DNA of 64,000 nucleotides from Candidatus Latescibacterota bacterium (GTDB taxonomy: Bacteria; Latescibacterota; UBA2968; GCA-2709665): assembly GCA_963667175.2 (NCBI GenBank), contig CAXXXF010000016.1, forward strand, positions 352,001-416,000. The letters run 5' to 3'. Every line of letters starts with the position of its first letter. Position 1 is the stretch's first letter. This document shows positions 35,000-62,102 of the stretch, piece by piece. Made by a program: the position numbers and the translations under genes. The notes beneath the pieces were generated by a model that worked only from the letters and a program-made list of their open reading frames with translations, had not been told where the DNA came from and did not search any database.

Positions 35000-35006
35000 G
35001 AACAGC

Positions 35007-35085: not shown

Positions 35086-35742
35086 TCAAAAGTCATCAAC
35101 GGCTGCAGAAGATGAGTCTTTGTCCACGCGATCCGGACATTCGCTCTCGGGAATCTTACAAAACGTACATTCCCCGTAACTCGGCACTCTTCTGGACGGT
35201 TCATTCGATGCCAGTTTGCGTATCAACTCCGCAAATCGCTCGACGAATTTACCGTCAATGGCCGATGAAGGGACCGGGACCTCCCTCTCTCCGTAAACAA
35301 CCCGTCCTTCGAAAACAACGTCTTTGTATTTCTCGGGAAAGGCTTTGGGAACGGCATACATGTAAAGCATGACCTGAACGTGATCAGATGACCTTGGTTG
35401 ACCCGTCTTGATATCTACGATGATGCCGCGATTTTCCTTCCTTGCGATCAAATCGGGCTTTCCCCCAACCGTCGCCGTCCTTCCCTTGAGGTGGAAGTAA
35501 TTCTGAGTCTCGGTCGACACCTCAAAGCCTCTATCTTCCAGTATTTCCTGATATTTATTTCTCGCTGCCGTATGTTCGATCTGCCAGGTGGTCGAATCGA
35601 AATCACCCGGCAAAGCCGTCCAGCTCTTCCTGTCGTGTTGGGCTTGAAACCAGCCGGCCCACTCACATGACGCTTCTCCGGTCAGCAACTTCGTCAACCA
35701 CGTCACCCAGAAATACGGTAGACCAGGTCTTCTCTCTGCCAT
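35086..35742 (-). CDS. PD-(D/E)XK nuclease, Cas4/AddB-like with four Cys
   Basis: KPDL...VDIKTG...QVMLY nuclease motifs; one N-terminal Cys plus C-terminal CxxC-x6-C. Confidence 0.7.
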   Translation of the reverse strand: MAERRPGLPYFWVTWLTKLLTGEASCEWAGWFQAQHDRKSWTALPGDFDSTTWQIEHTAARNKYQEILEDRGFEVSTETQNYFHLKGRTATVGGKPDLIARKENRGIIVDIKTGQPRSSDHVQVMLYMYAVPKAFPEKYKDVVFEGRVVYGEREVPVPSSAIDGKFVERFAELIRKLASNEPSRRVPSYGECTFCKIPESECPDRVDKDSSSAAVDDF

Positions 35743-35887
35743 CTTCCTCTCACTTTCGAGGCCAGTTATCAAACTGCACATTGCATCCGGATTATTGAGA
35801 CAATTCCCTCTTCCACCGTGTCTACGCACCGAGGTCATCCAGGAATTCGGAACCCGGCAGGCGCCAGACAGTGTGGAACTATGAGAT

Positions 35888-37591
35888 TCAATCAAGGGCT
35901 GACTCTCGCCAGATGCCTGTAGCCTGTTTCGCCATCCAAGCCTGGCGCGTCCGGGTCTTTTCCACTGACCATGAGTCGTAGTCTTCCGCCAACTTGCGGG
36001 TGATGGCGAAGTTACTCAGCTGGTAGACTGGACGTTTTTCTGCGAATCCCGCGTTTCCCAAGTTGCGGTTGTCCGTGGTCGCCAACAACGTCATGTTTCC
36101 GAGACGGTAGGTGGACGCCTCTTGCTGCTGGTCGTCAAACTCCTCCCAGCCCTCGCCGGGATTCTCCGGTAACACATGCTCGATGCTGTATCTCGCGCTC
36201 TCGTATTCGAAACTCTGTCCTGATAACTGAGCTTCCAGTCGAAACAGCATAAAGCGCACGACCTTATTGTTGCGACTACTGGTTGTTCTTAACACCTTGT
36301 CCGCAAACGCCGCCCTGAATTCGGGATCATCGGGATAGACGGGCCGAAGCTCGGAAATTGCCGCGGCGATGGTGTGTATACGGCCTACCGAAATTCCCCG
36401 GGCGATCTGGTTGTAAACAACCTCTTGCTCATTGCTCTGGCGACTGCAAATCACGTTGTATCGAAATGATAAAACCGCCACTGCGCGCAAAAAACGCCCG
36501 AAGCCGACTCGGTCTTCTTCGCCGAATTGCTCAAATGCTGCCAAGAGTAATGCCAGGGGCTGACGCACGTTAAACATCTGCAGCTGACCGAGACTGGCAC
36601 GTTCTTCTGCTGTCCAGGCGTCGTCCTCAGGGCTCCGAAGGGCTGCATACACCCGGGCGCTCCTGTCCAGGTCGCGGACCAGTTCGAACGCTTTGGACCG
36701 ATCGCAAATCGCGTTCCGAATAACTTTAAACAAGTCTGCCTTGCGCACCAGCTGGTTTCGGCTGTTCCAGAACACACGCAAAAACTCGGGAAGACTCTCA
36801 CTGCCCAGCAAACCTACGATACCCTCCCAACGTTCTTCCAGATTGGCAATCTCGGATTTATGCGGATTTCCGCGTGAGACAACCGAAAACAGGTAATTCT
36901 TGAGCAAATCAGTAGCGGACAAGCGCACGCCTCGAGCATTTAGTGTCTCGAACACCTTAAAGGCATTCAATTCGTCAGTCACGGTTATGATTGTAAAGAA
37001 CAGCTTATCCACCGCGACGTCAACGAAGCGAGCAACTGACTCACCGTCATTGCCGCATCTTCCCTTGATGCGCTCCTTGAACCAGATGAACGCGCGACGC
37101 ATAAGATGTTCCGAGGCATTCAGGCCCCTTTGCGGCAGGCGCTCCAGCGGCACCAGGTAATTCTGGTAAAATCGATCGTTATGCCGATTCAGCGTGAGCT
37201 TGGAGCGCGATATCAGACTGACAGGATCCAGGTAGCCGATGTAGTTGCTGCGCAATTGCTCAGCGCGTCGCCGTTGTGGATGGTCCGAATCGCCCGACGG
37301 CGCCAGGTCCACCAGATGCGCTACCGCCGCGAGCATCAACAAGCTCAGCGTAGTCATGCGCTGTTGTCCGTCGATAATGTCAAATGACCGGTTGTCCCCC
37401 GACTGCAGAACCAAATAGCCCATGTAATGAGCAGGCTCCGGATCGTCACCGAATAATGCAACAATGTCCTGCCACAGGTCGTCCCATTCGTCAAGACCCC
37501 ATGAGTAATCACGCTGAAATTTTGGGACACGATAACTCAGCCCATTTGCCATTAGCTGACGGAAAGTGTTGTTGGTCGTGTTAAAATTCAT
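35888..37591 (-). CDS. DUF262 + DUF1524 (HNH) protein, GmrSD-like modification-dependent nuclease
   Basis: VPKFQRDYSW, DGQQR, FETLNARG, SIEHVLP, LGNMTLL...N. Confidence 0.88.
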   Translation of the reverse strand: MNFNTTNNTFRQLMANGLSYRVPKFQRDYSWGLDEWDDLWQDIVALFGDDPEPAHYMGYLVLQSGDNRSFDIIDGQQRMTTLSLLMLAAVAHLVDLAPSGDSDHPQRRRAEQLRSNYIGYLDPVSLISRSKLTLNRHNDRFYQNYLVPLERLPQRGLNASEHLMRRAFIWFKERIKGRCGNDGESVARFVDVAVDKLFFTIITVTDELNAFKVFETLNARGVRLSATDLLKNYLFSVVSRGNPHKSEIANLEERWEGIVGLLGSESLPEFLRVFWNSRNQLVRKADLFKVIRNAICDRSKAFELVRDLDRSARVYAALRSPEDDAWTAEERASLGQLQMFNVRQPLALLLAAFEQFGEEDRVGFGRFLRAVAVLSFRYNVICSRQSNEQEVVYNQIARGISVGRIHTIAAAISELRPVYPDDPEFRAAFADKVLRTTSSRNNKVVRFMLFRLEAQLSGQSFEYESARYSIEHVLPENPGEGWEEFDDQQQEASTYRLGNMTLLATTDNRNLGNAGFAEKRPVYQLSNFAITRKLAEDYDSWSVEKTRTRQAWMAKQATGIWRESALD

Positions 37592-39309: not shown

Positions 39310-39519
39310 TCACATCCTGGACACCTTCATTACCTCGTCCCCAAGGTAAATCTACAGCCTTTACGGCAATCCGTCCTGATGACGGTTTGGGGAATTGTCG
39401 TGAGGTGTCGCTGTGACACGTATCCAACGTTTACCTGTTGATCTCGGCTTCGAGGGCGGTCTTGAGAGATTTATACGGTTCGATTGCGCCGAAGAAGTAT
39501 GCCTGGAGAACGAAGAAGC
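39310..39519 (-). pseudogene. Degenerate copy of the 3' end of the DNA methyltransferase gene
   Basis: Aligns to 57581-57789 (HSDTSRQFPKPSSGRIAVK...GDEVMKV); contains frameshifts. Confidence 0.88.
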
Positions 39520-39549
39520 AGGTTGGGTGACTATTGGATGCAACCCGTT

Positions 39550-40737
39550 CTATGCTTCGGTCGAGCGCATATCAAACGTCAACCTGACGTACCCACCCTT
39601 GTCGTCCTGAAAGAGATCAGGCTCGGTTCCATTAATGTCGAACATTGATTCTCGCATCACGGGCCACCCCCTACCCCGTTTCTCCATCAATCCTTTGACG
39701 ACCATGTTGTTCGCCATAGATTCGTTCCGGGATCGGGGATGGGCGCCAGCGCGAACACGCTCAACCGTCATGTGGTTTGGAAGCGTACCGGTACTCGTAA
39801 CGTCGACATGATCATCGTAAACCTCTAACAGGACATTCGAGCCGGTGATGGCATAGTCCCTGTGCACGACCGCGTTGACCAGCGCCTCCCTCAGTGCCGC
39901 TTCCGGTAAAGGGCCTCGGTCTTCTCGAAACAGATTTCTATAGGTCTCAAATCGCCCAAGCCCTTGGAACCATCCGACGGCACGTTGAACCTGCTCGTCC
40001 AAACGACCTTTGACATCAGCCACTTGTAACGTATTAGAAGCCCGGTCGTCACCTTCGTATGCGACGCATTGTATCCGAAAGCCGTGCGTTTGTGGGTAGC
40101 GCTGCGGTTCCTTGCCGAATGCCAGCACACCGTAGAGAGTGGGGTGCAAACCGTCTCCCAATTGTGCCACCACCCCGCGATTGCGGAGATCGTCAAAATT
40201 GTCAGGCTGAGGTTCTCCGAGAATATCGAGCCCGATCGCTTGCAAATACTCGCGAAAGCACTGGATATCGATATCCTCTGGTGTCGCAGCCTGAATCGGG
40301 CGTTCCTCGGTCATAATGTAACCGAAAGCGTTGTAGAGTTCCTGTAATTCGCTGGGTGATGGCTCGACGTTGCTGCGTTCCCGTCGGACCCAAACCCGGC
40401 CATCGTAGCACATCGGTTCGAAACTTCGCTGCCGAGGAATCTCAATCCAGTGTACCCAACCTTTCGGATGCTCATGCCACCCGCGACGTGCGGTTACCGG
40501 CGAGCTGCAACCCATTTTCAGGAAAGATGTCAACCTCTCCTGAACTCTTTCCACATCCTCTTTGACCCCCACAACTCCATGAGAAGGGTCGACGCCCAGC
40601 ATAATAACGCCGCCATCGGTGTTTGCAAATGCGCATATCGCTTTGCCGATCGCAGAAAGGTCGCCAGGGCCGCGTTTGAACTCGCTGTGCCGGTCCTCGC
40701 CAAGTTCGACCCGCTCAAGGGTGTTTAGCCAAACCAT
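39550..40737 (-). CDS. Schlafen/AlbA_2 + HATPase_c_4 (RecG-C-like) protein, copy 2
   Basis: GEDRHSEFKR, ICAFANTDGG, REALVNAVVHRDY, RSRN, MEKRGRG; paralogue of 53553-54731. Confidence 0.85.
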   Translation of the reverse strand: MVWLNTLERVELGEDRHSEFKRGPGDLSAIGKAICAFANTDGGVIMLGVDPSHGVVGVKEDVERVQERLTSFLKMGCSSPVTARRGWHEHPKGWVHWIEIPRQRSFEPMCYDGRVWVRRERSNVEPSPSELQELYNAFGYIMTEERPIQAATPEDIDIQCFREYLQAIGLDILGEPQPDNFDDLRNRGVVAQLGDGLHPTLYGVLAFGKEPQRYPQTHGFRIQCVAYEGDDRASNTLQVADVKGRLDEQVQRAVGWFQGLGRFETYRNLFREDRGPLPEAALREALVNAVVHRDYAITGSNVLLEVYDDHVDVTSTGTLPNHMTVERVRAGAHPRSRNESMANNMVVKGLMEKRGRGWPVMRESMFDINGTEPDLFQDDKGGYVRLTFDMRSTEA

Positions 40738-41024
40738 CAAACTTCCAATTCCTGATAACTCTTCAATGTGCTCATATTTCGCCACCATCCTGCCTCTACT
40801 GGTCACCAGCTACTGACGACTGTAACATCCGGCTCCCCGAAGATGCCAAAGAGTTTTCCCGTGCCGTGTTTTTATTGGCTTCGGCCATATGGAGGTCTAC
40901 GTTCATACGAGTCTTTAGAACCGTGACGCGACCGAAATCTCTGTAATCCAAAGCGTGGGCATCCCAACTAGAGCGCGGGAGATCAACAGGTCGATTTCAG
41001 CGCATGTTTGTTCCTGACCTTGGC

Positions 41025-41732
41025 CTATTGATTAACTTGGGATGGGATGCCTTCCAGTAGTCTTAGCCAGTGTTGAAAATGCGGGCAAGTGGAACAAATC
41101 GTGTTGATGCCGATCTCACTCGCCACAAACGTACCCATCAATGGCTTCTGATACCCAGGTACGAGCGCTTCGATACGCTTGGAAGGTGCTGTGTCTGGCG
41201 AGTCATCAATCTCTTCCGGACCGGCAAATTGGTGTCTGATTTCCTCAAATGCCGTTGTCAGTTCAGGAAACCCTATTCCACGAGCGAACGTGTCACAATC
41301 ACTGAAGAGCATTGCTTCGAACTCGTGCATTGCAACGTAAGGGATAAAACGCCTCCGATCGAAATTTGGGCCCATTCCGATGGCGATGTCATCCAGCAGG
41401 GCATCTTCGACTGTCTTTGCTTTTTCCGACGAAGACTCCTGACCCGTAGCTTGCAGGCGACCCGGCCACGCTTTCGAACGGGTATTGGGCATTGCGTAGT
41501 AGTCCACCATTGTAGTCGCAAAGCTTCCCGGATCTTCTTTCAAGTGTCTTGAAATGTCTCTACGCACACTGTTCCACGGCCTGATTCCACCGCGCCTGTG
41601 CCGTTGGCGGGCGTTTCCAACCAGACGTGCGCTGACTCCGACAAACCCGAAATCGTACAAATGGGGCGCCAGGAGTTCATTGACGAATTGCTCTTCTGAC
41701 TGGCCTTCAACATGGACTAGCAACCGTGTCAT
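41025..41732 (-). CDS. DUF4276 family (TOPRIM-like) protein
   Basis: VHVEGQSEEQF, TTMVDYY, HEFEAMLFSD, PEEIDD...PSKRI, YQK, CPHF..W; ATGA-coupled to the ATPase. Confidence 0.8.
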   Translation of the reverse strand: MTRLLVHVEGQSEEQFVNELLAPHLYDFGFVGVSARLVGNARQRHRRGGIRPWNSVRRDISRHLKEDPGSFATTMVDYYAMPNTRSKAWPGRLQATGQESSSEKAKTVEDALLDDIAIGMGPNFDRRRFIPYVAMHEFEAMLFSDCDTFARGIGFPELTTAFEEIRHQFAGPEEIDDSPDTAPSKRIEALVPGYQKPLMGTFVASEIGINTICSTCPHFQHWLRLLEGIPSQVNQ

Positions 41733-42826
41733 GACGAAGATCCGCGACCCGTGTCCTCCTTTACAGGACGCCCACCGAGTTCGTTCTTTTCCCATAGCTG
41801 ACCGAGGCTGTATTCTTCAAGCCACGCCGCGAGGCTCCTGTTGTCCAATCTCTGGAACGTTGTCGCACGGTTTACGCGATCCGCGACAATTACGTCCCTT
41901 GGATCGAAATGATCCAACAGCACCGGCGACTGTGTTGCAACGATGATTTGGGATTCCACGGATGCCTGCTTCAGCATGGAAGCGAGAAGTGTCGTGGCGT
42001 AAGGATGGAGTCCAAGCTCCGGTTCGTCCAGAAGAACCACGGGCGGCCGCAGCGAAGTCGGCTGAAGAAGAAGCGTGGCAAGGGCCATAAACCGCAGTGT
42101 TCCGTCGGACAGTGAGGACGCGTCGAAGTACGCGTCCGATCCCGAGTGGCGCCACTCAAGACGAATCTTGTCTTCGTTCAATGCCATCGGTTCGAGTGCG
42201 AAGTCTTCGAAAAATGGCGCCGCCAGCTGGATGGCACGTTGAATCTGAGTGTATGAATCGTCGTGTTTGTTTTTCAGTAAGAACAGAAACGCCGAGAGGT
42301 TCGACCCGTCCGTACGAAGACTGCGATTGTCGTTGACATCGGAGGTCGTCTTCAATGGCGACGTGGAGCCTGCATCGTGAAAATGGTAGGTTTGCCAACT
42401 CTCAATTTGCCGGCCAACCTGGTGCGGAAAGGGAAAGTTGGGTGAGTTAGCCCAATTCACATCCTCCGAATTGCCTCTGACTGGGGCTGACGGATGGAAC
42501 ATCAGATTATTTATGTAGAGTCCATCAGAATCGTCACTGCTCAGTTCCATTGCAAATCCGGATCGGTCTCGGTCGAAAGAGACTTGCACATCGAGTGTTG
42601 GGGTGACTTTTGCGCCGAAATGCAGAATCCGGTTTGCTCCGCCCGCCTCTCTGACATAGCGCTCCAACCGTCCTTGGATGCAGGCGCGCAGAAACGAGAA
42701 CACTTCAATAAGGTTTGACTTTCCTGATCCGTTGGCCCCAATCAACACATTTAGAGGACGCAACTGAAGCATGGCATCGGCAATACTCTTAAAGCCTATA
42801 ACGAAGATTCCGTCGAGTTTGGTCAT
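41729..42826 (-). CDS. AAA_21/ABC-type ATPase
   Basis: GFKSI, GANGSGKSN, LSDGTLR, LDEPELGLHP, TQSP. Confidence 0.88.
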   Translation of the reverse strand: MTKLDGIFVIGFKSIADAMLQLRPLNVLIGANGSGKSNLIEVFSFLRACIQGRLERYVREAGGANRILHFGAKVTPTLDVQVSFDRDRSGFAMELSSDDSDGLYINNLMFHPSAPVRGNSEDVNWANSPNFPFPHQVGRQIESWQTYHFHDAGSTSPLKTTSDVNDNRSLRTDGSNLSAFLFLLKNKHDDSYTQIQRAIQLAAPFFEDFALEPMALNEDKIRLEWRHSGSDAYFDASSLSDGTLRFMALATLLLQPTSLRPPVVLLDEPELGLHPYATTLLASMLKQASVESQIIVATQSPVLLDHFDPRDVIVADRVNRATTFQRLDNRSLAAWLEEYSLGQLWEKNELGGRPVKEDTGRGSSS

Positions 42827-42834
42827 GGCTCGCC

Positions 42835-42977
42835 TTATACCCGAAACACCTTCATCACCTCGTCGCCAAGGTGATTTATTACCTTCACAGCAATCCTACC
42901 GGACGTTGGTTTGGCGAAGGGCCGGGATGTGTCGCTATGGAGCGTTTCCCAGGCTTCCTGATTGATTTCGGCCTTAA
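42835..42977 (-). pseudogene. Copy of the 3' end of the DNA methyltransferase gene, truncated by IS1380
   Basis: Translates KAEINQEAWETLHSDTSRPFAKPTSGRIAVKVINHLGDEVMKVFRV*, one residue different from the intact gene despite many synonymous changes. Confidence 0.92.
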
Positions 42978-44122
42978 CCTCAATGTGAAATTAATCAGGC
43001 GGCTTTCTGTAGGGCATTGCAATTTCGCGGTATTGTTTTTCGGTCTGCTTGTTGCGTTGGAGTCGCAGGGTGAGTCGTCCTTTTGGTCGGATGAAGTAGC
43101 CTGCGCGGTTGATGAGTTCGAACCGGAGTTTGCGTATGGATTTGAGGGCCCACCTGCCTGCTGCAGGCAGGTCGGTTGGTACTTTTCAAGGTGCGATTGC
43201 GTTGTGTCAGTCCGGTATCGATTTCGAAGTTGACCAGTCGGAGGGTGTAGGCATCCCCCAAGGTTTCTTCGACCTGGGTAAACACGTCCTTTAGAAACGG
43301 GATGGAGGCGCTGCCGTCATTGACGTTGTCGGGACGGTTGTGCACGCCCAGAAAGTGACCACTGTCGGCCAGGTAGGCGGTAATCGGATAGTAACTGGGC
43401 ACTTTGCGATGGTGCGGATTATAGCCACGACGGGCGCCATCGACGTGCTTTCCCGCGCACAAGACCGTGCCGTCCACGTCGATGGTCAACGTGCGGGAGC
43501 GCAACGCCTTGATCCTATCAGCCCGTTGATAAAGTCCATCCGGTCTACGTCCGGCCCTTGTGACCGAATGACGGCGTTGCGCTCCCTCCCCGAATCCAGG
43601 GATTCGCGTCGGTCGCGCGCCTTGTCTTCGGCCACAATGACTCGGCCTCGCCTGCGGAGCGACTTTTTCAACGGACTGCTATGGGCAACAACGTCGGCGT
43701 TGAGGGCTTTCAGGGCATTGAGACCCTCGTCGGGAAACCGTCTCAGAAACGTGCTCATGCTGCGGGGGGTCGGTAAATCCGTCAGACCGCAAAACCGCGC
43801 CAACGCCCACACTGCCTAGGTGACGGCGCAATTGCCTGTTCCAATCCACGTTTCGCAAATATCGCGTCAACGGTTCCAGACCCGCATACGAGGTGAGGCC
43901 TTCACCGGTGAATTCCATCGTCAAATCGTCATTGACACGCGCGTGCAAATCTGCTTTCTTTCTCACTGTACGTGGCCTTTCGTTTTGGGTTAATTGGGTG
44001 TTTCGTCGCTTCCCAATATACCAAAATGGAAGGCCTTTTCCTATTGAAAAATATAGACTTATTCGCCACTTCGCTTCGTCTTCAATAACCCGAAATCCAT
44101 CAACATTATTTTCGCATTGAGG
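42978..44122 (-). mobile_element. Degraded IS1380-family element
   Basis: Terminal IRs CCTCAATGTGAAATTAAT / CCTCAATGCGAAAATAAT (16/18) flanked by TTAA on both sides; transposase fragments LTSYAGL, LTIDVDGT, GYNPHH...SYYP; internal deletions. Confidence 0.85.
43519..43678. mobile_element. 160-bp MITE inserted in the IS1380 transposase
   Basis: IRs CAGCCCGTTGATAAAGTC / GACTTTTTCAACGGACTG; CTAT target duplication at 43515-43518 and 43679-43682; removal restores the frame ADVVAHRIKALRSRTLTIDVDG. Confidence 0.88.
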
Positions 44123-45575: not shown

Positions 45576-47645
45576 TTATATTCCAAGATCATCCAGGAAT
45601 TCGGAAGCCGGCTTGACCCCAGAAACCATCAGATAGTCACGTGCGCGTGTACAGGCAACATACAGCAGGTGTCTCTCTGTGTCATATACCTCTTCAAGGT
45701 CCGACTCATCCGCGGCAGTCTCAATGCGTTCCTGCCGCGGGATGGCTTCGTCGTCACACGCCATGACGACAGCGGCACGAAACTCCAGCCCCTTGGCCAG
45801 ATGCATCGTGGCTATCGAGACTCGCCCCGCAGCCGGCTCTCCTCCTTCGTCCAGTACCCCGAAACGATACCCTGCTCCATCGGCAGCCTTGCGCGCTCTG
45901 TCCAGTTGGGATTCTGAACGTACGAAAATCGCCATTTCGCCGGTGTCGACACCCTTCTCACTGCACCCCCGAAGCCATGCGCCGACGGCCTCGGTCTCTT
46001 GCCGCGCCGTATCGTACCGTTGGATTTCAGGCGGCTCTCCGTTAAACGCCGATACCGTTCCTCTTCGATCCTCCGTGTAACCATCCACGTCTGCGACTTC
46101 GGAGCCGAGCAGCCTGTCCGCATGCCTCCTGATCTGGTGGGAGGTCCGATAGTTGAGGGTGAGTGTCTCGGATCGGCCCGTTATATCGATGCCCACCGCC
46201 TTCCAGGAAAACGGCGCCTGGAAAATCCGTTGACCGAGATCGCCGGCGAAAAACAGGCTGTTTGCCCGCTGGCCGCCCATGGCTGCAAGAAATCGCAATT
46301 GAGGGACGCTGATTTCCTGCGCTTCATCCACGACAGCAAAGTCGTAAGGCGGATGCCGACGTTCTTTAAGGCCCCCGCCCAGCAAACGATAAATCTCTGC
46401 ACGCGTGACCAGGCCACGTTCACTCAGTTGTCCTCTGACCCTGTCAAATATAGCCCACAACGCCGAACGCTGCTCGAGGGGAAGCCGCGGCTTGCGTCCG
46501 AGTCGTCTGACGTCGCGATAGGCTTCCCATGTGTCCAACTGCCAGGCGTCGACGACGTTCTCCCACTCGTCCATCAGAAACGGGACGGAATAGCGATGTG
46601 GTCCATCCTGTTTGGCGTATTCGGAAAGTAGGCCCCGGACCGTCTCCTTTGGCGCAAATTTCGGGACACCGAATTGCGCCCGATAGAGCCGCTCGCAGAC
46701 CTGATGAATCGCGGTGACTTCCAGGCGCTCCATTAACCGGGGTTCATTTCGAATCAGCCGCCCGACCCTCGTGCGGAGAAAATCTGCCAGGGTGTCCGAA
46801 AACGTCGTAAGGAGGACCCGAGCTTCCGGATTCGTCCGTGCGAGAAACACAGCCCTGTGAATGGCCACGACGGTCTTACCCGTACCGGCCGTCCCGGATA
46901 CACGAAACGGACCGTTATAGTCACCCTCCACGATTTTCCGCTGCGACGGATGCAGAAAAATCGACCATTTATCCCATGGAAAGTCAAGCGCAAGCGCAAG
47001 TTCGTCCTCGTTCGAAATCGCCTGGAAACGACGCTTCGCATCGGGGTGTTCGAACGGGTCTTCGACGACAACAGGCGCTACCGGTTTCGGCATCTCCCCG
47101 ACGGCAATCTGCAGCAACGCCTCCGCTGCTTCATCGGGTAGATGCTCCGACAAATCCAACAGACTGTCTTCGTCGGCATTCCGAACGTCATCGATCCATT
47201 CAGCCGGAACGCCGTAGCTCAGGAGATCCTCTTCGGAGGTCTCGGCGAACAGAAGGGGCTTGACAGGTACTTTCTGTTCTGCTTCCACGTAAACCGGTAC
47301 GACAACTTCCTCAACCGTCTCCTTCACTTCAACCAATTGAGCCGCTCCGGTTGTCGGATGGACTTCCAACTTGCGCTTTTCCGCCCATTTGTAGGCGTCG
47401 TCGTGGTGATCCACGTAGCACATCATCAGACTCTTGGGAGTCCGATGAACGATGACACGTAAATCCCGATTGACGCGAACCGACCAGAAATTCGGGTCCT
47501 TCGCTCTATCAACCCTGTGGAATTTAAATCCGGGCTGAGCGGGGTTCACCTGCAAATCAAAGGCCGTGGTTTTCACGGCCTTTTGTTCGTTTCCCGTCAG
47601 CCTCGCAAGACTGTCTGTGAATGTGTCTGCTATTCGGAAGTTCAT
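45576..47645 (-). CDS. UvrD-like SF1 helicase with N-terminal RelE/ParE-like domain
   Basis: N-terminal FWSVRVNRDLRVIV...YVDHHDDAY; GTAGTGKT, DEAQE, GDLGQRI, NYRT, AKGLEF, LYVACTRAR. Confidence 0.88.
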   Translation of the reverse strand: MNFRIADTFTDSLARLTGNEQKAVKTTAFDLQVNPAQPGFKFHRVDRAKDPNFWSVRVNRDLRVIVHRTPKSLMMCYVDHHDDAYKWAEKRKLEVHPTTGAAQLVEVKETVEEVVVPVYVEAEQKVPVKPLLFAETSEEDLLSYGVPAEWIDDVRNADEDSLLDLSEHLPDEAAEALLQIAVGEMPKPVAPVVVEDPFEHPDAKRRFQAISNEDELALALDFPWDKWSIFLHPSQRKIVEGDYNGPFRVSGTAGTGKTVVAIHRAVFLARTNPEARVLLTTFSDTLADFLRTRVGRLIRNEPRLMERLEVTAIHQVCERLYRAQFGVPKFAPKETVRGLLSEYAKQDGPHRYSVPFLMDEWENVVDAWQLDTWEAYRDVRRLGRKPRLPLEQRSALWAIFDRVRGQLSERGLVTRAEIYRLLGGGLKERRHPPYDFAVVDEAQEISVPQLRFLAAMGGQRANSLFFAGDLGQRIFQAPFSWKAVGIDITGRSETLTLNYRTSHQIRRHADRLLGSEVADVDGYTEDRRGTVSAFNGEPPEIQRYDTARQETEAVGAWLRGCSEKGVDTGEMAIFVRSESQLDRARKAADGAGYRFGVLDEGGEPAAGRVSIATMHLAKGLEFRAAVVMACDDEAIPRQERIETAADESDLEEVYDTERHLLYVACTRARDYLMVSGVKPASEFLDDLGI

Positions 47646-49924: not shown

Positions 49925-50180
49925 GAAAGTCTATTGCTCCTTAAGTACTCAAATATGTGCAAAGGGCGATGGCTTGAAAAGACCAACCCGACATGCCCGT
50001 ACAAAACTTCGTCTTCCTGATGCTCGACGCAGTGTGATATCATGACGGACTAAGACACAAACAACCTGGCTCGACGCTTTCTCGCGTTCTACGTCATTTC
50101 CGTTACACACCCGCCAAATGTTAGACGGAGATTTGGGTGGTCGTCGTTGTGCAGTCACTGACTCGCGGCTATTTCAAGGA

Positions 50181-53156
50181 TCACCAATCTGGGGGGAGCG
50201 GTCGCCACTCCGACTCGTCCGAACATCCGCCAAAGTGGCCACAATAACGCCATTCACGAAGCGATTCCAAAGGCAAAGTGACAGCAATTACTGCGTTAGT
50301 ATCCCGCTCAACAAGCCGACACAAATCTCTCTCCCAGCGAGTTCTTTTTGGTGCCCAAGCTCTGCAATCGGAATAGTGTCCGTTATTGGCGACACCAACG
50401 ATTGCATTAAGTTGCAAACCTGCCGTTTGTATCAGATGGTCGTAGGATGACGTGTCTTTGTTCCACGCAGGCACAGCGACGAATTCGACCCGCCCTGCAA
50501 GATCAGAGATTCGGTACGCCTCAATCAATTCACTGCAAATCAACACTGAAATGCTGCCGTACTGGCTTTCGACGACCGTACGGGGTCGTGACTCGCGTTT
50601 ATCCCTTTTTTCGAACGAGACGTTTAGTTCATTGAGTTTCGTAAATTCCTCTCTCGCAGGGAATTCCTTTGTCCACGGCCAAGTAGCCGTCGAGTTAAAT
50701 GGACCAGGTATAACCGCGTATACCTGATTGAATACAATTCGATCACTTGGACGATGTAGATATTCGAGTCCGACGATTAGACCAAAGCTACCAAACCTGG
50801 AGACATGGGTAGCAACTTCGCGGAACCAAGCACGGGGAAGCGATAACTCTGGCAGGACAAGCAGGCTTGGAGAGGGATGGTGCCGTTGTGCAAATTCGTT
50901 ACTCTTGGCTAGAATCTCAGTTAAGTCCCGGAGTCGCTCCACAGTCAGTACTGGATCACCAGTGTTCGACGCGGACTTTCGAGTCGCCGCTCGCGTGAAG
51001 AATTCTTCCGACAATACCAGATTACCCAAAATGAGTTGTGGGTTGGCGAAATCATCATCGCCTAATTCGACCCTTCCGGGTATATAGACCGTGTGCTCAT
51101 CGATTACCTCGCCAACGGGATCGGAGTATTGAGTGCCACGAATCGCATTGACCATTTCCAGTAATTCGGTGAATACTTCAGAACGCAGACCAGCCTCGGT
51201 CCGGTACAATACACGACGTGCCACATCAAAGTACGAAGGCGGACGAGTACACAAAAACAAACGAACTGGTGACATTATCCATGGCCTATCGTCAAGCCTT
51301 CGACATATCTCAACGAATTCGTTAACACGACTAAAGCGCTGTATGAGTTCCGCATCATAGCTGCTAAAACCATCGTTCTGTAAGCGTACATTGTTCGAGG
51401 CGTCGTCAAAGGCGTCGTCCTCCCGATCAAACGCCCTGAGGTCTGCGGCCGCAAGTAACCTCGCCCGCGCGAGTAGCGTACTCCACTGAATGGTTCGAGT
51501 CCGATTCAAGACGCCACTGCGAAGCCATCTCGGCGGGGAATCAGGATAATGTGGCGATATCACGCTGCATATCGCCTCGATTCTCATTGTATGTAGATAA
51601 TTTCGAAGCCATACCCAACTGTTGGACAACGTAATTTCTCTGTCTCGATGGAAGAGTTTTACTGCTGCAGCTCGGAGTTTCTCCACATCAATCCAAATAT
51701 CGTCCATGTAGCTATACAGAACATCTGTGTGTTCCCAGTCGCGTGCACGAATCCCTAACTTTAACATCCGAAGAGCCACGTCTAAATTCTCCACCCAATC
51801 GACTTCGCTACTTAAGAAGCGAATGGTCTCATCCAAGGCCCGCTTTACCAATCCACTCGCACTATCTCTCTCAGCAAGAATGGTAGCCCGCTCTAGCGAA
51901 CGTAACCTTGTAGCAAGCTCGAAATGTTCAAGGCGGGTCCGGTCCGCTTCGCGTAAGACTGTCAGAGGACGCCCGGGCGGTCCAACGTGAAGTAGACTTT
52001 GTTGTCCGTTTTCGTGAAAAATCGTCGGATCCAAGAACGCACGGCTGCCACTTACCAGGCGTCCAAAATCCCTGCGGACACTTGCAAGGAAATCACTACC
52101 TGAAACATCAGAAAGGTAGTACGCCTTACACTTTGACCTTTGAATTCGAAATTCAGAACCCGGTCTCTTAATCGCACTCTCGTCGATACGAAACGCTGAA
52201 TTCTCGATATGTAGATGGGGTATATGATCGAGAATGACCTGATCCACATCACGAGACTGATCCCCTTCTACGCGGGCGAGAATCGCGAAGTCATCGACGT
52301 ATCGCTTGTAACATCGCGTGTTCGGCCGCTTTTCAATGGACTGGTCTAAATTGGATAATGCCAGGTTCGCCACTAGGCGACTCGTAAGCGCACCAATCGG
52401 AATACCTGTAGTCCAACTAAGACCTGTCCGGCGTGCGGCGCGATGTTGAAACCTGCGATAGAATCGAAGAAGCGAGGCTGCGGCTGAGCGATACCGTGAG
52501 ATTTGGAGGCTAGAATTCTCCATTGACGAAGACACGGACTCTTCAAGTTCGTCAACAAAGTCATCGTCGAGTAGAAATGATGGGTCCACGGTATCGTAGA
52601 AGCTCGTAAGGTCCGCACAGAGAAGGACAACCGAATGACCCTCCGATATCTCTTTTGTGGCAACGTCGATCGGGTTTGTTCGGAACTCTTCATAGCGCTT
52701 TGGCCAGTATTCGAACAGCCATCTACGGGTCTTACTCATGCGTCCGCTTTGAAGTTCTAGCCGGTAGCCGAGCGCACTTTTGGATAGAAGTGATTCAAGA
52801 ATCGGTCCAAATTGCCACAAAAACAGTACCTCTACAATCGCACACTCAGGGCTCGGCGTGTAGCGAATCTGAACGTCCAATCCTCCAATTGCATCATTTG
52901 ACGGCTTACCACCAATGTAGACAACGTTTTCATCATCATTCAACCTAAGTTTCTTCGGCACGACCCAGACTTCCCCCTCAGGCAGCCCATCGAACCAGCC
53001 GCCGTTGTCCGCCAATCGCGACGCCAACTCGTCAAGCCTTCGTCCCAAATTTCGCTCAAAGCGCGCTAATTCAACTAGCCCAACCCCACGGCGCTCAAAA
53101 AACAGCGCCACTTTCGCTTGTCTGTAGGCTAGGAAGAGTTCATCCGTTGTCGGCAT
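50181..53156 (-). CDS. Reverse transcriptase-nitrilase fusion (DRT1-like; UG1/UG5/UG6 architecture)
   Basis: AYRQAK..FE.NL N-terminus, GYRL, DLTSFYDTV, GIPIGALTSRLVANL, RYVDD; C-terminal nitrilase triad LPELS / K / ICSEL. Confidence 0.88.
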   Translation of the reverse strand: MPTTDELFLAYRQAKVALFFERRGVGLVELARFERNLGRRLDELASRLADNGGWFDGLPEGEVWVVPKKLRLNDDENVVYIGGKPSNDAIGGLDVQIRYTPSPECAIVEVLFLWQFGPILESLLSKSALGYRLELQSGRMSKTRRWLFEYWPKRYEEFRTNPIDVATKEISEGHSVVLLCADLTSFYDTVDPSFLLDDDFVDELEESVSSSMENSSLQISRYRSAAASLLRFYRRFQHRAARRTGLSWTTGIPIGALTSRLVANLALSNLDQSIEKRPNTRCYKRYVDDFAILARVEGDQSRDVDQVILDHIPHLHIENSAFRIDESAIKRPGSEFRIQRSKCKAYYLSDVSGSDFLASVRRDFGRLVSGSRAFLDPTIFHENGQQSLLHVGPPGRPLTVLREADRTRLEHFELATRLRSLERATILAERDSASGLVKRALDETIRFLSSEVDWVENLDVALRMLKLGIRARDWEHTDVLYSYMDDIWIDVEKLRAAAVKLFHRDREITLSNSWVWLRNYLHTMRIEAICSVISPHYPDSPPRWLRSGVLNRTRTIQWSTLLARARLLAAADLRAFDREDDAFDDASNNVRLQNDGFSSYDAELIQRFSRVNEFVEICRRLDDRPWIMSPVRLFLCTRPPSYFDVARRVLYRTEAGLRSEVFTELLEMVNAIRGTQYSDPVGEVIDEHTVYIPGRVELGDDDFANPQLILGNLVLSEEFFTRAATRKSASNTGDPVLTVERLRDLTEILAKSNEFAQRHHPSPSLLVLPELSLPRAWFREVATHVSRFGSFGLIVGLEYLHRPSDRIVFNQVYAVIPGPFNSTATWPWTKEFPAREEFTKLNELNVSFEKRDKRESRPRTVVESQYGSISVLICSELIEAYRISDLAGRVEFVAVPAWNKDTSSYDHLIQTAGLQLNAIVGVANNGHYSDCRAWAPKRTRWERDLCRLVERDTNAVIAVTLPLESLREWRYCGHFGGCSDESEWRPLPPDW

Positions 53157-53258
53157 GGGTCGCGCTATTTTAGTGACAAATGAACCGCTTGCGGCTAGTG
53201 CACCACGTAGCTCGGAAATCCCGATGCATGTGTTCGCCGGTTCCTGTCAGTTATTGGT

Positions 53259-53467
53259 CTATACCCGAAACACCTTCATCACCTCGTCCCCGAGGTGGTC
53301 GATTACCTTTGCCTCAATCTGGCCGGACATTGGTTTGGCGAAAGGCCGGCATGTGTCGCTACGGAGCGGTTACCAGGCTTCTTGGTTTATTTCGGCTTTA
53401 AGGGTGTTCTTGAGCAACTTAAAGGGGTCGTCTGCGTCGAGAGAGTAGGCCTGGCGAACGAAGAAGC
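53259..53467 (-). pseudogene. Degenerate copy of the 3' end of the DNA methyltransferase gene
   Basis: FFVRQAYSLDADDPFKLLKNTLKAEINQEAW*PLRSDTCRPFAKPMSGQIEAKVIDHLGDEVMKVFRV*; colinear with 57581-57789, one internal stop. Confidence 0.92.
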
Positions 53468-53552
53468 AACGCTTGTCTTCGGCGGCATTAACAGAATAGG
53501 GGCCTAAGAAGCAGGTAGGGTGACTGTTGGATGCAATTCTCTTATTCTTCGG

Positions 53553-54731
53553 TCAGGTGCAGAGATCAAACGTCACCCTGACGTACCCACCTTTGTCGTC
53601 TTGCATTAAATCGGGCTCGGTTCCGTTGAAGTCGAGCATAGACTTGCGCATCACGGGCCATCCCCGACCCCGCTGCTCCATGAATCCCTTGGCAACCATA
53701 ATGTTTGCCATCAGTTCGTTCCGCGATCGTGGATGGGCTCCCGCACGGACGCTCTCAACCGTCATATGATTTGGCAGCGTACCGGGACTACTCACGTCGA
53801 TGTGCTCAGAGAAGACTTCAAGAAGCACTCGTGAACCGGTGATCGCGTAATCCCTATGCACAACGGCGTTGACTAACGCTTCCCTGAGCGCTGCTTCAGG
53901 CAAAAGCCAACGGTCTCTCCTGGTCAGTCCTCGATACGACTCGAATCGACCAAGACCGTGGAACCAACCGACGGCACGTCTGACCTGTTCATCCAATCGA
54001 CCAGTCGCGTCTGCTACCTGAAGCGTATTCGAAGCCCGGTCCTTGCCTTCATAAGCGACGCATTCTATCCGAAAACTGTGCGTTTGTGGGTAGCGCTGCG
54101 GTTCCTTGCCGAATGCCAGCACACCGTAGAGGGTGGGGTGCAAACCGTCTCCCAACTGTGCCACCACCCCCCGATTACGGAGGTCGTCCACGTCGTCCGG
54201 CTGAGGCTCTCCCAGAACGTCGAGTCCAATTGCCTGCAAATATTCGCGAAAGCACTGGAGATCAATTTGCTCCGGTGTTGCAGCCTGAATCGGGCGTTCC
54301 TCGGTCATAATGTAGCCGAAAGCGTTGTAGAGTTCCTGTAATTCGCTGGCCGACGGCTCGACGTTGCTGCGTTCGCGTCGGACCCAAACACGGCCATCGT
54401 AGCGCATCGGCTCGAAACTTCGCTGACGGGGCACTTCGATCCAGTGAATCCATCCGTTAGGGTCTTCATGACGTCCACCTTGGGCAGAAACCGGCGTACT
54501 GCATCCGGTTTGGAGAAACGCCGTCAATCGCTCTTGTACCCTTTCCGCATCCTCTTTGACCCCGACGATTTCCTGGGATTTATTTACACCAATGACGATA
54601 AGTCCTCCCTCGGTGTTTGCGAATGCGCACATCGCCCTGCCGATTGGAGACAGGTCGCCAGGGCCGCGTTTGAACTCGGTGTGCCGATCCTCGCCCAATT
54701 CGACTCGCCTAAGGATGTTTAGCCAATCCAT
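53553..54731 (-). CDS. Schlafen/AlbA_2 + HATPase_c_4 (RecG-C-like) protein, copy 1
   Basis: GEDRHTEFKR, CAFANTEGG, REALVNAVVHRDY, SPGTLP, RSRN, MEQRGRG. Confidence 0.85.
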   Translation of the reverse strand: MDWLNILRRVELGEDRHTEFKRGPGDLSPIGRAMCAFANTEGGLIVIGVNKSQEIVGVKEDAERVQERLTAFLQTGCSTPVSAQGGRHEDPNGWIHWIEVPRQRSFEPMRYDGRVWVRRERSNVEPSASELQELYNAFGYIMTEERPIQAATPEQIDLQCFREYLQAIGLDVLGEPQPDDVDDLRNRGVVAQLGDGLHPTLYGVLAFGKEPQRYPQTHSFRIECVAYEGKDRASNTLQVADATGRLDEQVRRAVGWFHGLGRFESYRGLTRRDRWLLPEAALREALVNAVVHRDYAITGSRVLLEVFSEHIDVSSPGTLPNHMTVESVRAGAHPRSRNELMANIMVAKGFMEQRGRGWPVMRKSMLDFNGTEPDLMQDDKGGYVRVTFDLCT

Positions 54732-54742
54732 ATTGAACGACC

Positions 54743-57520
54743 TCAAAAACCGTACTTCAATCGGCGTAGACGAAACGCATCATCGCCTCCATCAACGGTC
54801 CTGACAATAGAGTCCCGGACGGACGGTTCCTCAATGGCCCCCGAATGCACGACACGGCCACGATTTGCAGTAGCGTCAAGTTGAATTACCTGATCCGCGT
54901 CACCATTAACGACAATATCGGCATTGTGCGTTGCGACGATGATTTGTCTTCGACCCTTTAGCCGTTTAAGTGCGGGGAGAACCGTATCAGATAGAAACCG
55001 GTTGTCAAGTTCATCCTCGGGCTGGTCGATAACCAATGGACGTTCATCGCTAGTCTCAAGCAGCAGCGATAGCAGCAAGCTAACTCGCTGCCCTCCTGAG
55101 AGGTCGTCCAAACGCCGATGGCGTCCATCATCCATCCTTAGTTCCAATAAGTAATGGTCGCTGCAGCGAATGGCCGCAAGGTACCTCTGCTTTGTACGCG
55201 TCAACTGTTCTCGGAATGTAGATTGAACAGCGGCACTCATGCCGACTTCATTCAACGTGTCGTCGCTCAAATGACTAAGCAATTCGATCGGAGACGGTCT
55301 GCTCTGATTCTCCAATTCGTTCCACCACCTTGTGATCCCTCTCTTGCTCAAATCTCTTAGAAAGCGGTCCAGTGGCCCGCGACTGCCGTCGTCCACGCGA
55401 CGGGCCGAAATCCGCCCATCGAATTCTGCGAAGATCGTCTCGGTCACCCGGTCAAATGCAGCCCTCTGTTCCCCAACGAGCCCTTCTCTTTCATCGAGTA
55501 GCCCCTGGAAAGTTCGTTCAGCCTCAGAAAGCTCTTTACGTACCTTATTCAGATTCGCCTCGTAACTCTCTCTGAGCGAAGACTGGACGTTTAATGCCTG
55601 CAACTCCTTAATCTGTGACCCGTCAAGTCCACGCTTCGCCAGAGCTCGATCAACCTCGGTGTGAATGCCCTGCTCCTGAAGCTTCAGTGTCTCCAATATC
55701 GACAATGTTTTTGCATCCCAATCTCTCAGTTCAACTTTCGCAGATCTGATGTGTTCTCGGATTCGATTCCATGCTTCCTGCAACTCCTCACTCCTCACTC
55801 CTACGCCCGCGTTATCCACTGATCCTACAAAATAGTCGCCGGATTTGGGCAAACTGAAACCGTCCGTAACTCCTATTGCACGATCGAGATGGGTTCCCAG
55901 ATCTTCAGACACCTCACAGCATTCCTGCCATTGACGAATCGCACGTGCGACTTCGTGCAGCTTCTCTACACCTGCCTCTGAGAATGCTTCAAGTTTATTG
56001 GCGGCGATAACTGTCCGCTCATATGCCTGCTCAGCCTCGGAGAGAACATCATCGAGTTCCGCCAAGTGTTTCGCCTGGCGGTCAAGTTCCTTGTCGATCG
56101 CGCTTAATCGAGTCTGACGCTCCACGATTCTTGACATCTGTGACGGAACAAGCCTCGTGAGAATCTCTTCCACGGCACTTGGTTCTTGTGCGAGCCGATG
56201 CAGTTCATTCTGTGCGTAAAATACCGCGGGCCACCTCTCACGATCCGGTGCGGTAGGATCCTGGCCCGGACAATCGAGTGAGACCTCAGCCGAACCAGCG
56301 AGAAACCTTTCCTTGCCACGTGCTTCTACCTGCTTTCTGATGCCGTCGTCTTGTGGCAATGCCGCATCGGTGTATAGTCGCAGTCCATCCAAAAACGTGC
56401 TCTTGCCCGTCATGCTGCCGCCGATAATGCATGTTAGATCAGGGCTGAGGTGGAAACTCGTGGCTGGCTCATTTTCTGCAGTTGTACCAAAAAACGACGC
56501 CCGCCCGTCGATTGTGACCGTCTTGAGCCAAGGCCGTTGGTTAATGGTGACATCGGGCGGGTTTGCAATCTCAACTAGACCGCCACTTGCGTCGCGTTCG
56601 TAACCGATGCGCACCCGCGAGTCGCTAGCGATAAAGGCCTGTCGAAGAGCCTCGACTCTTGGGCTCGCAAGCTTCAGCCACGTGTGACGCTTACCGATTT
56701 CGTCCACCGAATAGGCGTCGCTTCCGTGAAAAAACGCCAAGTGATTCGCAGCCATCCCTTCGGGCAACCACTCACGGTTTTTCATTGCGTCGTCGGCAAG
56801 TTTTCCGTCGCCAAGTTCAAGCCCAGTCACTTCACTATGGGGGAAGTTCTTTAGAACCTGCGCGTTGAGTGCTCCGAGAAGACCCTTATTGTTATCGATA
56901 TGGGGCGCAAGCGTAATGTAGTTCCATTCAGGCTGCCCACATTCGTCCAAGGGGCACTCTTGACGATGGAATTCACGCAGATCTCGGAAAACCTCGTCGG
57001 CGTTTTTGCTGGAGATTTGTAGGTCCTTGCCCCGCCATGGCGACACGCCACCCATGGCCAAATAAAACGCTTTCATATAACCATCACGACCGACCTCAGG
57101 ATCAAAGAGAAAAATGAGATGCAATCCTCGCTTTCCCTGTTTGAGTGACGGCTCGAAGCCGGGAAAGACAGCATATATCTTCTCCCTGAAGGGTTTTCCG
57201 TCATCGTCAACGCCAACGTTCCACTCATCTACGATTTGCCAGACTGCGCTCGTATCGACTCCTGTTTCAACACACGATGAATGCGGTGTAATGCCCAATA
57301 CTCGTACATCCCGAGCGGCCGCATTCTGTAGAAATATCCTAGCATATGCCTTAAGTGTCTCCTTGGATACGGGTCGACGAAATTTCACGCCGTTAGGAAC
57401 CTTCGCCCTGTCACCATCAATGTCATCTATTGTATGGATATGTAAGTCCGCCTTGAACCACCGTGCGCCCGGGACGTCCCGGTGCCAGTTGTCGGCCTCC
57501 TGCCGTTTAAAGAAATCCAT
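54743..57520 (-). CDS. PHP phosphoesterase + coiled-coil ATPase fusion (Ppl/TrlF-like)
   Basis: WFKADLHIHT, ITPH, GSDAY PHP motifs; GGSMTGKST, LSGGQR, IDQPEDELD, THNA. Confidence 0.85.
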   Translation of the reverse strand: MDFFKRQEADNWHRDVPGARWFKADLHIHTIDDIDGDRAKVPNGVKFRRPVSKETLKAYARIFLQNAAARDVRVLGITPHSSCVETGVDTSAVWQIVDEWNVGVDDDGKPFREKIYAVFPGFEPSLKQGKRGLHLIFLFDPEVGRDGYMKAFYLAMGGVSPWRGKDLQISSKNADEVFRDLREFHRQECPLDECGQPEWNYITLAPHIDNNKGLLGALNAQVLKNFPHSEVTGLELGDGKLADDAMKNREWLPEGMAANHLAFFHGSDAYSVDEIGKRHTWLKLASPRVEALRQAFIASDSRVRIGYERDASGGLVEIANPPDVTINQRPWLKTVTIDGRASFFGTTAENEPATSFHLSPDLTCIIGGSMTGKSTFLDGLRLYTDAALPQDDGIRKQVEARGKERFLAGSAEVSLDCPGQDPTAPDRERWPAVFYAQNELHRLAQEPSAVEEILTRLVPSQMSRIVERQTRLSAIDKELDRQAKHLAELDDVLSEAEQAYERTVIAANKLEAFSEAGVEKLHEVARAIRQWQECCEVSEDLGTHLDRAIGVTDGFSLPKSGDYFVGSVDNAGVGVRSEELQEAWNRIREHIRSAKVELRDWDAKTLSILETLKLQEQGIHTEVDRALAKRGLDGSQIKELQALNVQSSLRESYEANLNKVRKELSEAERTFQGLLDEREGLVGEQRAAFDRVTETIFAEFDGRISARRVDDGSRGPLDRFLRDLSKRGITRWWNELENQSRPSPIELLSHLSDDTLNEVGMSAAVQSTFREQLTRTKQRYLAAIRCSDHYLLELRMDDGRHRRLDDLSGGQRVSLLLSLLLETSDERPLVIDQPEDELDNRFLSDTVLPALKRLKGRRQIIVATHNADIVVNGDADQVIQLDATANRGRVVHSGAIEEPSVRDSIVRTVDGGDDAFRLRRLKYGF

Positions 57521-57580
57521 TGTGCATTCTCCGAGCGGAATTGGCACTCGTGGTTAAGTCGCTTAGCTTGCTGAGAGACA

Positions 57581-61721: not shown

Positions 61722-62088
61722 CTATTTTACGGTTCCCTCACCTGGCTGAAACCGACCGATCATCTCACAAAAGGCCGCTTCCACTTTGGACTCGAAGTCC
61801 GCCTGCATTTCATAGACGTCGGTGAACTCTGCGAACGCCCACCGCCCGTAGTTCTCGTGGTTGTTCACGCCAGGCACCCAGTAGGTGTCCATAGTGGACT
61901 TCTTCTGTTTGGCGTCCTCACCACGATAGCCCTTGATTTCCACGATGAGGTGCAGAGGATCATCTTCACCCCGTCCGTCGTCAACCATGACGATAAAGTC
62001 GGGGATGTACGTCCGTGTTGTCGAACCATGTCTGTAGGGTGCTTCGAGCCCAAGATTGTGGTACTTAACGTAGGCTCGGACGCGAGGA
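61722..62088 (-). pseudogene. Duplicate 3' end of the restriction endonuclease gene
   Basis: PRVRAYVK...YIPDFIV...VEIKGYRGEDAK...WVPGVN...ADFESKVEA, near-identical to the 63436 gene with a different tail. Confidence 0.9.
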
Positions 62089-62102
62089 CAGGTCAACCCT
62101 CT

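Follow-up and report, generated by a model that had tools for sequence, protein, structure and literature searches.

A second, once-functional mod allele persists as a 3′ stump in a probably stacked defence island beside dnaG

The minus-strand segment 42835..42977 of the window, the 64,000-nucleotide stretch of a Candidatus Latescibacterota genome analysed here, is the 3′ stump of a second, once-functional allele (mod″) of the island's type III-like methyltransferase gene, mod. We consider it probable that this stump, which we call rem2, lies in an island built as a stack of overlapping copies of a res–mod–cargo–UvrD locus. The island beside dnaG would then hold three or more copies, in partial overlap, of a single mobile locus, res–mod–(cargo)–UvrD–PD-(D/E)XK. 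In each round of recombination the highly conserved core genes, above all the end of mod, would provide the homologous side, and the other side would be a non-homologous joint or an IS deletion of adjacent DNA. After each round, what is left of the earlier mod, truncated on its 5′ side, would remain joined to the defence cassette that formerly lay behind it. The stump would have no function of its own, and would survive because further deletion would remove the start of HEC-01, the cassette it now precedes.

rem2 comprises the last 46 codons of the gene and a TAA stop codon (mod residues 886/887–932); the minus-strand reading of 42835–42977 is KAEINQEAWETLHSDTSRPFAKPTSGRIAVKVINHLGDEVMKVFRV followed by the stop, with neither a start codon nor a lesion. 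In a tblastn search, 47 of its 47 residues align to mod residues 886–932 (96%, E-value 1e-22), and blastn against the three other copies in the window gives E-values of 6e-45, 4e-41 and 1e-15. The match to the methyltransferase family is thus C-terminal, and a complete gene with an N6_N4_Mtase domain is not present, the catalytic domain of the intact mod lying at residues 160–478 and hence outside the 46 codons. rem2 is a gene remnant, not a member gene of the type III-like Mod family.

rem2 and the end of the intact mod (57581–60379) are 87.6% identical, with 18 of 138 bases different, and these fall 0, 1 and 17 times on codon positions 1, 2 and 3; they amount to 16 synonymous codon differences and one replacement (K in the intact mod, T in rem2), and the stop codon is TAA in rem2 and TGA in the intact gene. 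The NG86 method gives dN 0.009, dS 0.985 and a ratio of 0.010, the ratio being 0.020 by LWL85 and 0.007 by YN00, and dS lies in the range 0.75–0.99. Random placement of the 18 changes, with transitions and transversions in the observed proportion, gave 12.2 amino-acid changes on average, and 0 of 100,000 trials had one or none. The initial annotation of this DNA had described the remnant as differing almost only synonymously, and had argued that it is no decayed local duplicate; both statements stand, as the codon alignment places the ratio at about 0.01, not near 1, and strong purifying selection acted while rem2 and the resident mod diverged. Compared with eight intact mod ends of other genomes, rem2 shows 12–25 nucleotide and 0–4 amino-acid differences, and pairs of intact ends show 5–26 and 0–5; six other remnants carry 4–22 replacements over the same 46 codons. 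Since rem2 falls within the range of pairs of intact ends, the gene that it ended was functional until recently, in keeping with the same annotation. The absence of lesions from 46 codons is, taken alone, weak evidence of recency.

All genes of the island are on the minus strand, and the G+C content drops from about 0.61 to about 0.52 from approximately position 35000 to beyond the end of the window. Its core consists of res (ResIII helicase and RE_endonuc), mod (N6_N4_Mtase), a UvrD-like helicase gene and a gene for a PD-(D/E)XK protein beside dnaG. Read 5′ to 3′ on the minus strand, the order is as follows: an intact res (1,018 amino acids; its 3′ part is at 63463..64000 and the gene extends past the window to 66516 in window numbering), a DUF1828 gene, a 3′ remnant of res, a 257-aa ORF, the intact resident mod, an ABC ATPase gene (934 aa) and a Schlafen-like gene (397 aa) that form a cassette at 53553..57547 between mod and a further mod stump (rem3), then rem3 itself, a reverse transcriptase (RT)–nitrilase gene (UG5), three small ORFs, the UvrD-like core gene (45576..47645), IS and MITE debris, rem2, HEC-01A and HEC-01B, a mod fragment covering residues 735–821, a second Schlafen-like gene, another mod stump (rem1), a transglycosylase-like gene, a 220-aa ORF, and, at the dnaG-proximal end (35086..37591), a GmrSD-like gene (HEC-06) and the PD-(D/E)XK gene, followed by dnaG on the opposite strand. 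The resident mod encodes a 932-aa N6_N4 methyltransferase of the type III kind (Pfam, 1e-29; PADLOC MTase_III PDLC03632, E-value 0, profile positions 74–983 of 983). In minimal loci such as L063 the core genes touch or overlap, and UvrD directly follows mod. The ABC-ATPase and Schlafen-like cassette also follows mod in the genome G005 and at locus L047. Among the 27 island ORFs scanned with Pfam, none has an integrase or recombinase domain.

On its 3′ side, rem2 is closely tied to the defence genes behind it. HEC-01A (41729..42826, minus strand) is an ABC ATPase (AAA_21; Pfam 7e-33, PADLOC HEC-01A 4.1e-129), and HEC-01B (41025..41795, minus strand) is its DUF4276, TOPRIM-like partner (Pfam 8e-49, PADLOC HEC-01B 6.9e-73); the two genes are adjacent, as in HEC-01 systems, and the defence role of this copy is predicted. 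The ATG of HEC-01A lies 8 nt after the stop codon of rem2, and the junction alignment shows the arrangement of stop codon, 8–14-nt spacer and HEC-01A ATG to be common to L046, G012, G005, G004 and G006. At L046 the mod directly before HEC-01 is intact. In a phylum-wide search for HEC-01A, from which the N-terminally truncated L140 was left out, a mod end of 13 to at least 116 codons lies directly upstream in 8 of 8 full-length relatives of at least 70% identity and in 0 of 21 relatives of 64% identity or less. These eight cases are not independent, as G004, G006 and G007 share one junction and the genome of the window (G000) and G012 share the same stop codon and spacer. From the mod end before all eight close relatives it follows that this HEC-01 lineage was once directly behind mod and has retained a piece of it since, so that the physical link between remnant and downstream cargo, already pointed out in the initial annotation, is old and real. 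A scan of 42600–43300 gave 0 promoter-like and 0 terminator-like sites, and Rfam gave 0 matches over 35000–64000. The reading frame of rem2 meets a stop five codons upstream of the first mod codon, and contains no start before an internal GTG and ATG.

The 5′ edge has another character. A degraded IS with a DDE transposase (42978..44064, minus strand; Pfam DDE_Tnp_1), recognized from other copies in the genome and a three-copy alignment, adjoins the first base of rem2 with its terminus; three genome copies start aligning at 42977–42980, at most 2 nt from the first mod base. The element has an internal deletion of 480 nt and a MITE-like insert of 168 nt at 43514–43684. Everything upstream of codon 886 of mod″ is now replaced by the end of this IS, and no mod sequence was found beyond the far side of the element. 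The shortness of rem2 does not mark a capture boundary; it is due solely to the IS end that cuts mod″ at codon 886. Detectable mod homology in the stumps of G011 and G005 also ends near codon ~885 without an IS, and in seven other genomes the DNA before the stumps shows no homology to the IS. It is therefore possible that the IS inserted at a junction that already existed and did not itself cause the truncation. Public sequencing runs provide short contigs only, none of which spans 42977, and no variant with an intact mod″ was seen among them; two joints seen in them, 41812>42839 and 41825>42848, have sides of fewer than 30 letters and were set aside. The 168-nt MITE-like repeat nested in the IS and a second one of 293 nt (44347–44639), which is nested in a further repeat (44301–44349 and 44639–44803), have at least 18 and at least 20 other copies in the genome, at 89–96% and 90–100% identity, respectively.

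Comparison with the two nearest species, G012 and G008, bears on which of the two mod alleles is the older. The dS of dnaG between G000 and these two species is 0.19–0.20, and 0.69–0.79 with respect to G011, G014 and G004. In the sister species G012 the same stump, with the same TAA stop and spacer, lies before HEC-01, and this unit occupies the corresponding chromosomal site, with the serpin flank on one side and dnaG on the other. Its order is the serpin-side left flank, a mod stump from residue 816, HEC-01, a UvrD fragment, PD-(D/E)XK and dnaG, and G000 is colinear with it except for 24.5 kb, from res to the IS, in place of 224 nt of mod. Between the two genomes dS is 0.13 for HEC-01A, 0.28 for HEC-01B and 0.19 for dnaG; because the values for HEC-01 resemble that of dnaG, the stump and HEC-01 look vertically inherited. 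With the same unit at the same site and at a dnaG-like distance, it is more likely that mod″ is the older resident and that the block with the present intact mod arrived later. The proposal that the remnant was imported with its cargo is accordingly not borne out by this comparison.

Changes within the stump also suggest a recent loss. The stumps of G000 and G012 differ at 18 sites, of which 8 changed in the G000 lineage, 8 in the G012 lineage and 2 are ambiguous, in a polarization that is rough given diverse outgroups and fast sites. All 8 changes of the G000 lineage are at third positions, and 3 of the 8 in the G012 lineage are at positions 1 or 2; further upstream, the G012 stump holds three TGA stops. 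The simplest reading is that mod″ and HEC-01 were resident and working in the G000 lineage until recently, after which the first 885 codons were lost; this loss would have occurred when, or after, the block from res to UvrD and the IS came to lie upstream. G000 combines a G008-like block with a G012-like block, a composition that fits the import of one block and differential loss from a longer ancestor alike. In the second case, which may equally be what happened, both blocks were already present in the common ancestor, one of them disappearing in G008 and one in G012. A phylogeny of the stump and mods with the same cargo, proposed earlier as a check, had 138 columns to draw on: of the 81 inner branches in a tree built from the final 46 codons (84 rows), 49 are unresolved, and all four copies of the window fall in one 13-row clade. 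By identity, rem2 is closer to the mods of G008 and G005 (91–92%) than to that of L046 (82%).

Of the other mod remnants in the island, rem1 (39310..39544, minus strand) covers mod residues ~856–932 at 39313–39544 with a frameshift and a stop, and lies before the transglycosylase-like gene; rem3 (53259..53504, minus strand) covers residues ~852–932 at 53262–53504, with one in-frame stop and nine replacements in the last 46 codons. Both are longer than first described, reaching from about residue 852 or 856 to 932. Each is joined to a Schlafen-like gene: the second copy (39550..40806, minus strand, likely start 40737; Pfam Schlafen/AlbA_2 and HATPase_c_4) and the first (53553–54746) encode proteins of 83% amino-acid identity, and 53506–54731 matches 39513–40737 at 79.6% over 1,227 nt. 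As rem1 and rem3 lie in one duplicated block of Schlafen-like gene and stump with the same 5′ junction, a junction also found in G008, they go back to one truncation and not to independent captures. Of the three ages of capture that the window had been thought to record, the ranking by decay holds (42835 least, then 53259, then 39310), but the copies at 53259 and 39310 descend from a single truncation.

At their 3′ ends these stumps lead into different cargo, with parallels in other genomes. In G014 an intact mod is followed by the transglycosylase-like gene, then o220 and GmrSD, and rem1 leads into its transglycosylase-like gene in the same way. rem3 ends in TAG and is separated from the RT gene by a spacer of 100 nt, an arrangement that matches G011, where the mod is intact. 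The internal fragment (40809..41071, minus strand) derives from yet another mod copy; it covers residues 735–821, contains stops, and continues into an alternative ending common to G008 and G006. The sequence after codon 821/822 is common to the G000 fragment (window 40737–40809), the main mod of G008 (L032, ~18080–18190) and a remnant in G006 (L036, ~4400–4680). In G008 and G006 this ending continues for about 450 nt and may encode a product resembling four-helix-bundle proteins of the 23S IVS type. Across remnants the 5′ end varies (residues 603, 735, 798/804, 816, ~852, 886 and ~919), and all reach the mod stop codon except the internal 735–821 fragment.

A remnant of res (61758..62088, minus strand) behind the DUF1828 cassette, covering residues ~903–1010, is 90.9% identical to the end of the resident res over 110 codons, with a dN/dS of 0.125 and no stop, and represents the same phenomenon at the res–mod junction. 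The plus-strand ORF at 61362–62213 is an antisense artefact of this remnant. A direct repeat of 117 nt (90.6%) lies just upstream of the res remnant (62089–62204) and of the GmrSD-like gene (37863–37979), and occurs in G008 (98%) and L044 (80%) as well. At two other loci, 5′ fragments of mod are found upstream of an intact mod, namely at L029 3837–4511 in G011 (residues 1–226) and at L047 4348–4593 (residues 8–89), so partial duplication happens on the 5′ side too, at the res–mod junction.

One exchange of cargo can be followed to within a few codons. In G011 an RT–nitrilase cassette stands behind an intact mod, and relative to it the RT–nitrilase (UG5) cassette of the window (50101..53258 with its spacer, minus strand) has a dS of 0.14; for dnaG the dS between the same two genomes is 0.71, a gap of the kind that import predicts. 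Relative to G008, in which the stump directly precedes the next ORF, the cassette is a 3.2-kb insert after rem3. G000 and G011 are about 82% identical over the stump and 96% (49 of 51) over the spacer; the switch lies inside the last nine codons, with the last mismatch 29 nt before the stop. The right joint of the insert, about 65 nt after the RT stop, is non-homologous. A mosaic within rem3, with a G008-like 5′ part and a G011-like 3′ part, was not visible, the only jump being at the stop codon. These boundaries describe a cassette exchange in which the crossover fell among the invariant final codons of a dead stump, the opposite side being joined without homology.

How widely such stumps occur can be seen from a one-genome-per-species scan, which found 558 relatives of mod. 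The best 80 of these (79 loci), with 83–93% identity over the last 140 residues, span Latescibacterota, Acidobacteriota, Proteobacteria, Chloroflexi and others. mod and UvrD are adjacent in 10 of the 79 loci and separated by 0.16–7.7 kb of other genes in 41, and in 28 no UvrD start lies within the available DNA. In the 41 loci with cargo between the two genes, the 200 nt before UvrD never contain a mod stub, and of the 79 loci, which come from other lineages, only L047 has a downstream mod remnant. We therefore reject a mod stub as a general by-product of embedding. Lone or extra stumps are found within the genus in G004, G005, G006, G008 and G012, and further in G101, of another family, and L047; stacking is a trait of the lineage and not of the system generally. 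At L047 (10471–15504, a Latescibacterota MAG) the ATPase–Schlafen cassette lies between mod direct repeats of 990 nt that are 98.5% identical (dS 0.055), which fits a young insertion of the long-target-duplication type. In G101, locus L161 (10350–15425) has a mod stub followed by residues 1–112 of GmrSD, and a mod remnant (residues 766–932) followed by HEC-01; GmrSD residues 1–64 after HEC-01 and another lone stub are found there as well.

Several other origins of rem2 deserve weighing. The one with most in its favour is that a single segment carrying the end of a foreign, working mod together with HEC-01 entered the genome and came to lie downstream of the resident system by capture, with the stump at the edge of the imported DNA. 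The constant linkage of stump and HEC-01 (8 of 8) and the intact mod before HEC-01 at L046 agree with this, and mod″ is as far from the resident mod (dS 0.75–0.99) as the dnaG genes of distant species of the genus are from each other (0.69–0.79), so that one of the two alleles is foreign. It is nevertheless the orthologous unit that is found at the same site in G012, with HEC-01 dS values (0.13 and 0.28) that bracket that of dnaG; the G012 stump extends further upstream, to residue 816, the edge in G000 is an IS end and not a recombination joint, and the poorly resolved tree does not group rem2 with HEC-01-bearing mods, rem2 being nearer by identity to the mods of G008 and G005 than to that of L046. 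We hold such an import to be unlikely. Much less plausible still is a local origin, in which the insertion of a cassette duplicated a long target at the resident mod end, leaving the downstream copy to drift. Insertions of this kind do occur in the family, as the 990-nt repeats of L047 show, and the mechanism is described for RM genes in the sections drawn on here of Furuta et al. (2010; PMC2853133). A dead copy, however, would drift at all codon positions, and not at third positions in 17 of 18 cases; rem2 is free of lesions at a dS near 1, and several genes, including the core gene UvrD, lie between the two copies.

We also give very little weight to the mod end as an attachment site at which a site-specific recombinase integrates cassettes or systems, with the stumps as attL/attR-type duplications like those at tRNA genes. 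Direct repeats of a gene 3′ end do flank inserted DNA here, and the last 12 codons are kept in every stub. The 27 island ORFs scanned contain no integrase or recombinase domain, however, the 5′ ends of the repeats vary among cases and 0 of 41 cargo-bearing loci has a repeat before UvrD; moreover, a nucleotide-level site in the last 12 codons is not apparent, synonymous sites there being no more conserved than elsewhere among 42 intact ends. Equally improbable is retention of the stump for a function, be it a promoter or RNA element of HEC-01, a small peptide or a silent cassette for the Mod C terminus. The piece of mod kept before HEC-01 in all close relatives might suggest one, but 42600–43300 has no promoter- or terminator-like site and 35000–64000 no Rfam match, the stump has no usable start codon, and its encoded end, one residue different, offers no variation as a silent cassette. 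The lengths kept, 13–116 codons, are as expected if only the start region of HEC-01 is protected. These considerations leave the stump of mod″ in a stack of overlapping locus copies as our preferred reading.

As a pseudogene stump, rem2 belongs to a kind that is known in general; what is unusual is how clearly the stacked defence locus around it can be read. Integrative islands at tRNA and other genes copy the gene 3′ end at their far side (attL/attR) and can form tandem arrays; unlike these, and unlike any island defined by a recombinase gene and a fixed core site, the present one has no integrase found in it, variable repeat lengths and no conserved core site. Homology-facilitated illegitimate recombination, which de Vries and Wackernagel are said to have described in 2002 in naturally transformable bacteria, combines one homologous anchor with one non-homologous joint. 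The boundaries of the RT cassette and the variable truncation points fit this candidate mechanism; the IS-associated deletion at rem2 is a different process. In a phase-variable, shufflon-like RM locus, alternative coding segments alter the protein and are usually inverted, with a recombinase; rem2 is in direct orientation and encodes an end one residue different. We rejected such a silent cassette, as the other copies carry stops or frameshifts and there is no recombinase. Insertion with long target duplication was reportedly first seen in H. pylori.

Among published RM systems, there is a likeness to allelic substitution: as described by Furuta, Abe and Kobayashi (2010; PMC2853133), diverged RM alleles take one another's place at a single chromosomal locus, no genes dedicated to mobility being involved, and parts of genes remain there. 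Here, unlike there, replacement is partial and repeated, and 3′ stumps of mod and res stand in a row, each before its own non-RM cassette. The long target duplications of the same source give direct repeats of tens to hundreds of target bases, near-identical on the two flanks; L047 fits this at 98.5%, whereas rem2, at 87.6% and almost only synonymously different from the resident end, represents two alleles and not a fresh duplication. Embedded defence genes have been described for Hma, BREX, DISARM and type I systems (Payne et al., bioRxiv 10.1101/2024.01.29.577857, in the parts used here), and HEC-01 and the GmrSD-like HEC-06 resemble them in lying between core genes in the same orientation. 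The host system here consists of a ResIII/RE_endonuc res, an N6_N4 type III-like mod and a UvrD-like helicase, unlike Hma, a system of helicase, methyltransferase and ATPase in which the methyltransferase is an m5C enzyme (PMC8565338); membership in Hma is rejected on this ground, and no Hma model is among the PADLOC matches listed (for the mods, the best 25 of 30 and of 49). For the preprint, what embedding signifies 'remains to be explored', and the words 'remnant' and 'recombination' occur 0 times in its main text. The literature searches and the passages of papers covered here contain no account of core-gene stumps that mark or anchor embedded cassettes.

Defence genes commonly lie nested within larger defence systems, and such stumps bear on how this embedded cargo arrived. 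The island forms a readable record in which each cassette is still preceded by the end of the core gene that formerly stood before it. rem2 is well enough preserved to reveal that its parent gene was functional until recently, and the RT–nitrilase exchange is confined by the last nine mod codons at one edge and by a non-homologous joint at the opposite edge. Cassette turnover in this lineage thus seems to be driven by the ends of conserved core genes and not by the enzymes of mobile elements. For annotation, stumps of this kind should be marked as remnants, and they also mark former operon boundaries. More tentatively, the invariant mod end (the last 10–45 codons, the same protein across phyla) might be a portable homology anchor carried by defence cassettes. 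It is conceivable, at about the same modest level, that cassettes recombine in behind an intact mod or a dead stump without a recombinase, the stumps being reusable docking points. If this were true, docking stumps would let the res–mod–UvrD locus stack cassettes in an integron-like manner, giving a mechanism for the 'embedding' of defence systems.

The mod end can also be seen in public sequencing data. Four sponge-metagenome runs of one study contain 0.26–0.56 of the sampled words. In runs X10, X1, X2 and X3 the summed contig depth is 52–81 at 42837–43003 against 0.65–11 at 42670–42836, and four X10 contigs depart from the window below 42839. Given this excess of depth over the mod end and the diverging contigs, the mod end is common to several members of the community that have other genes downstream.
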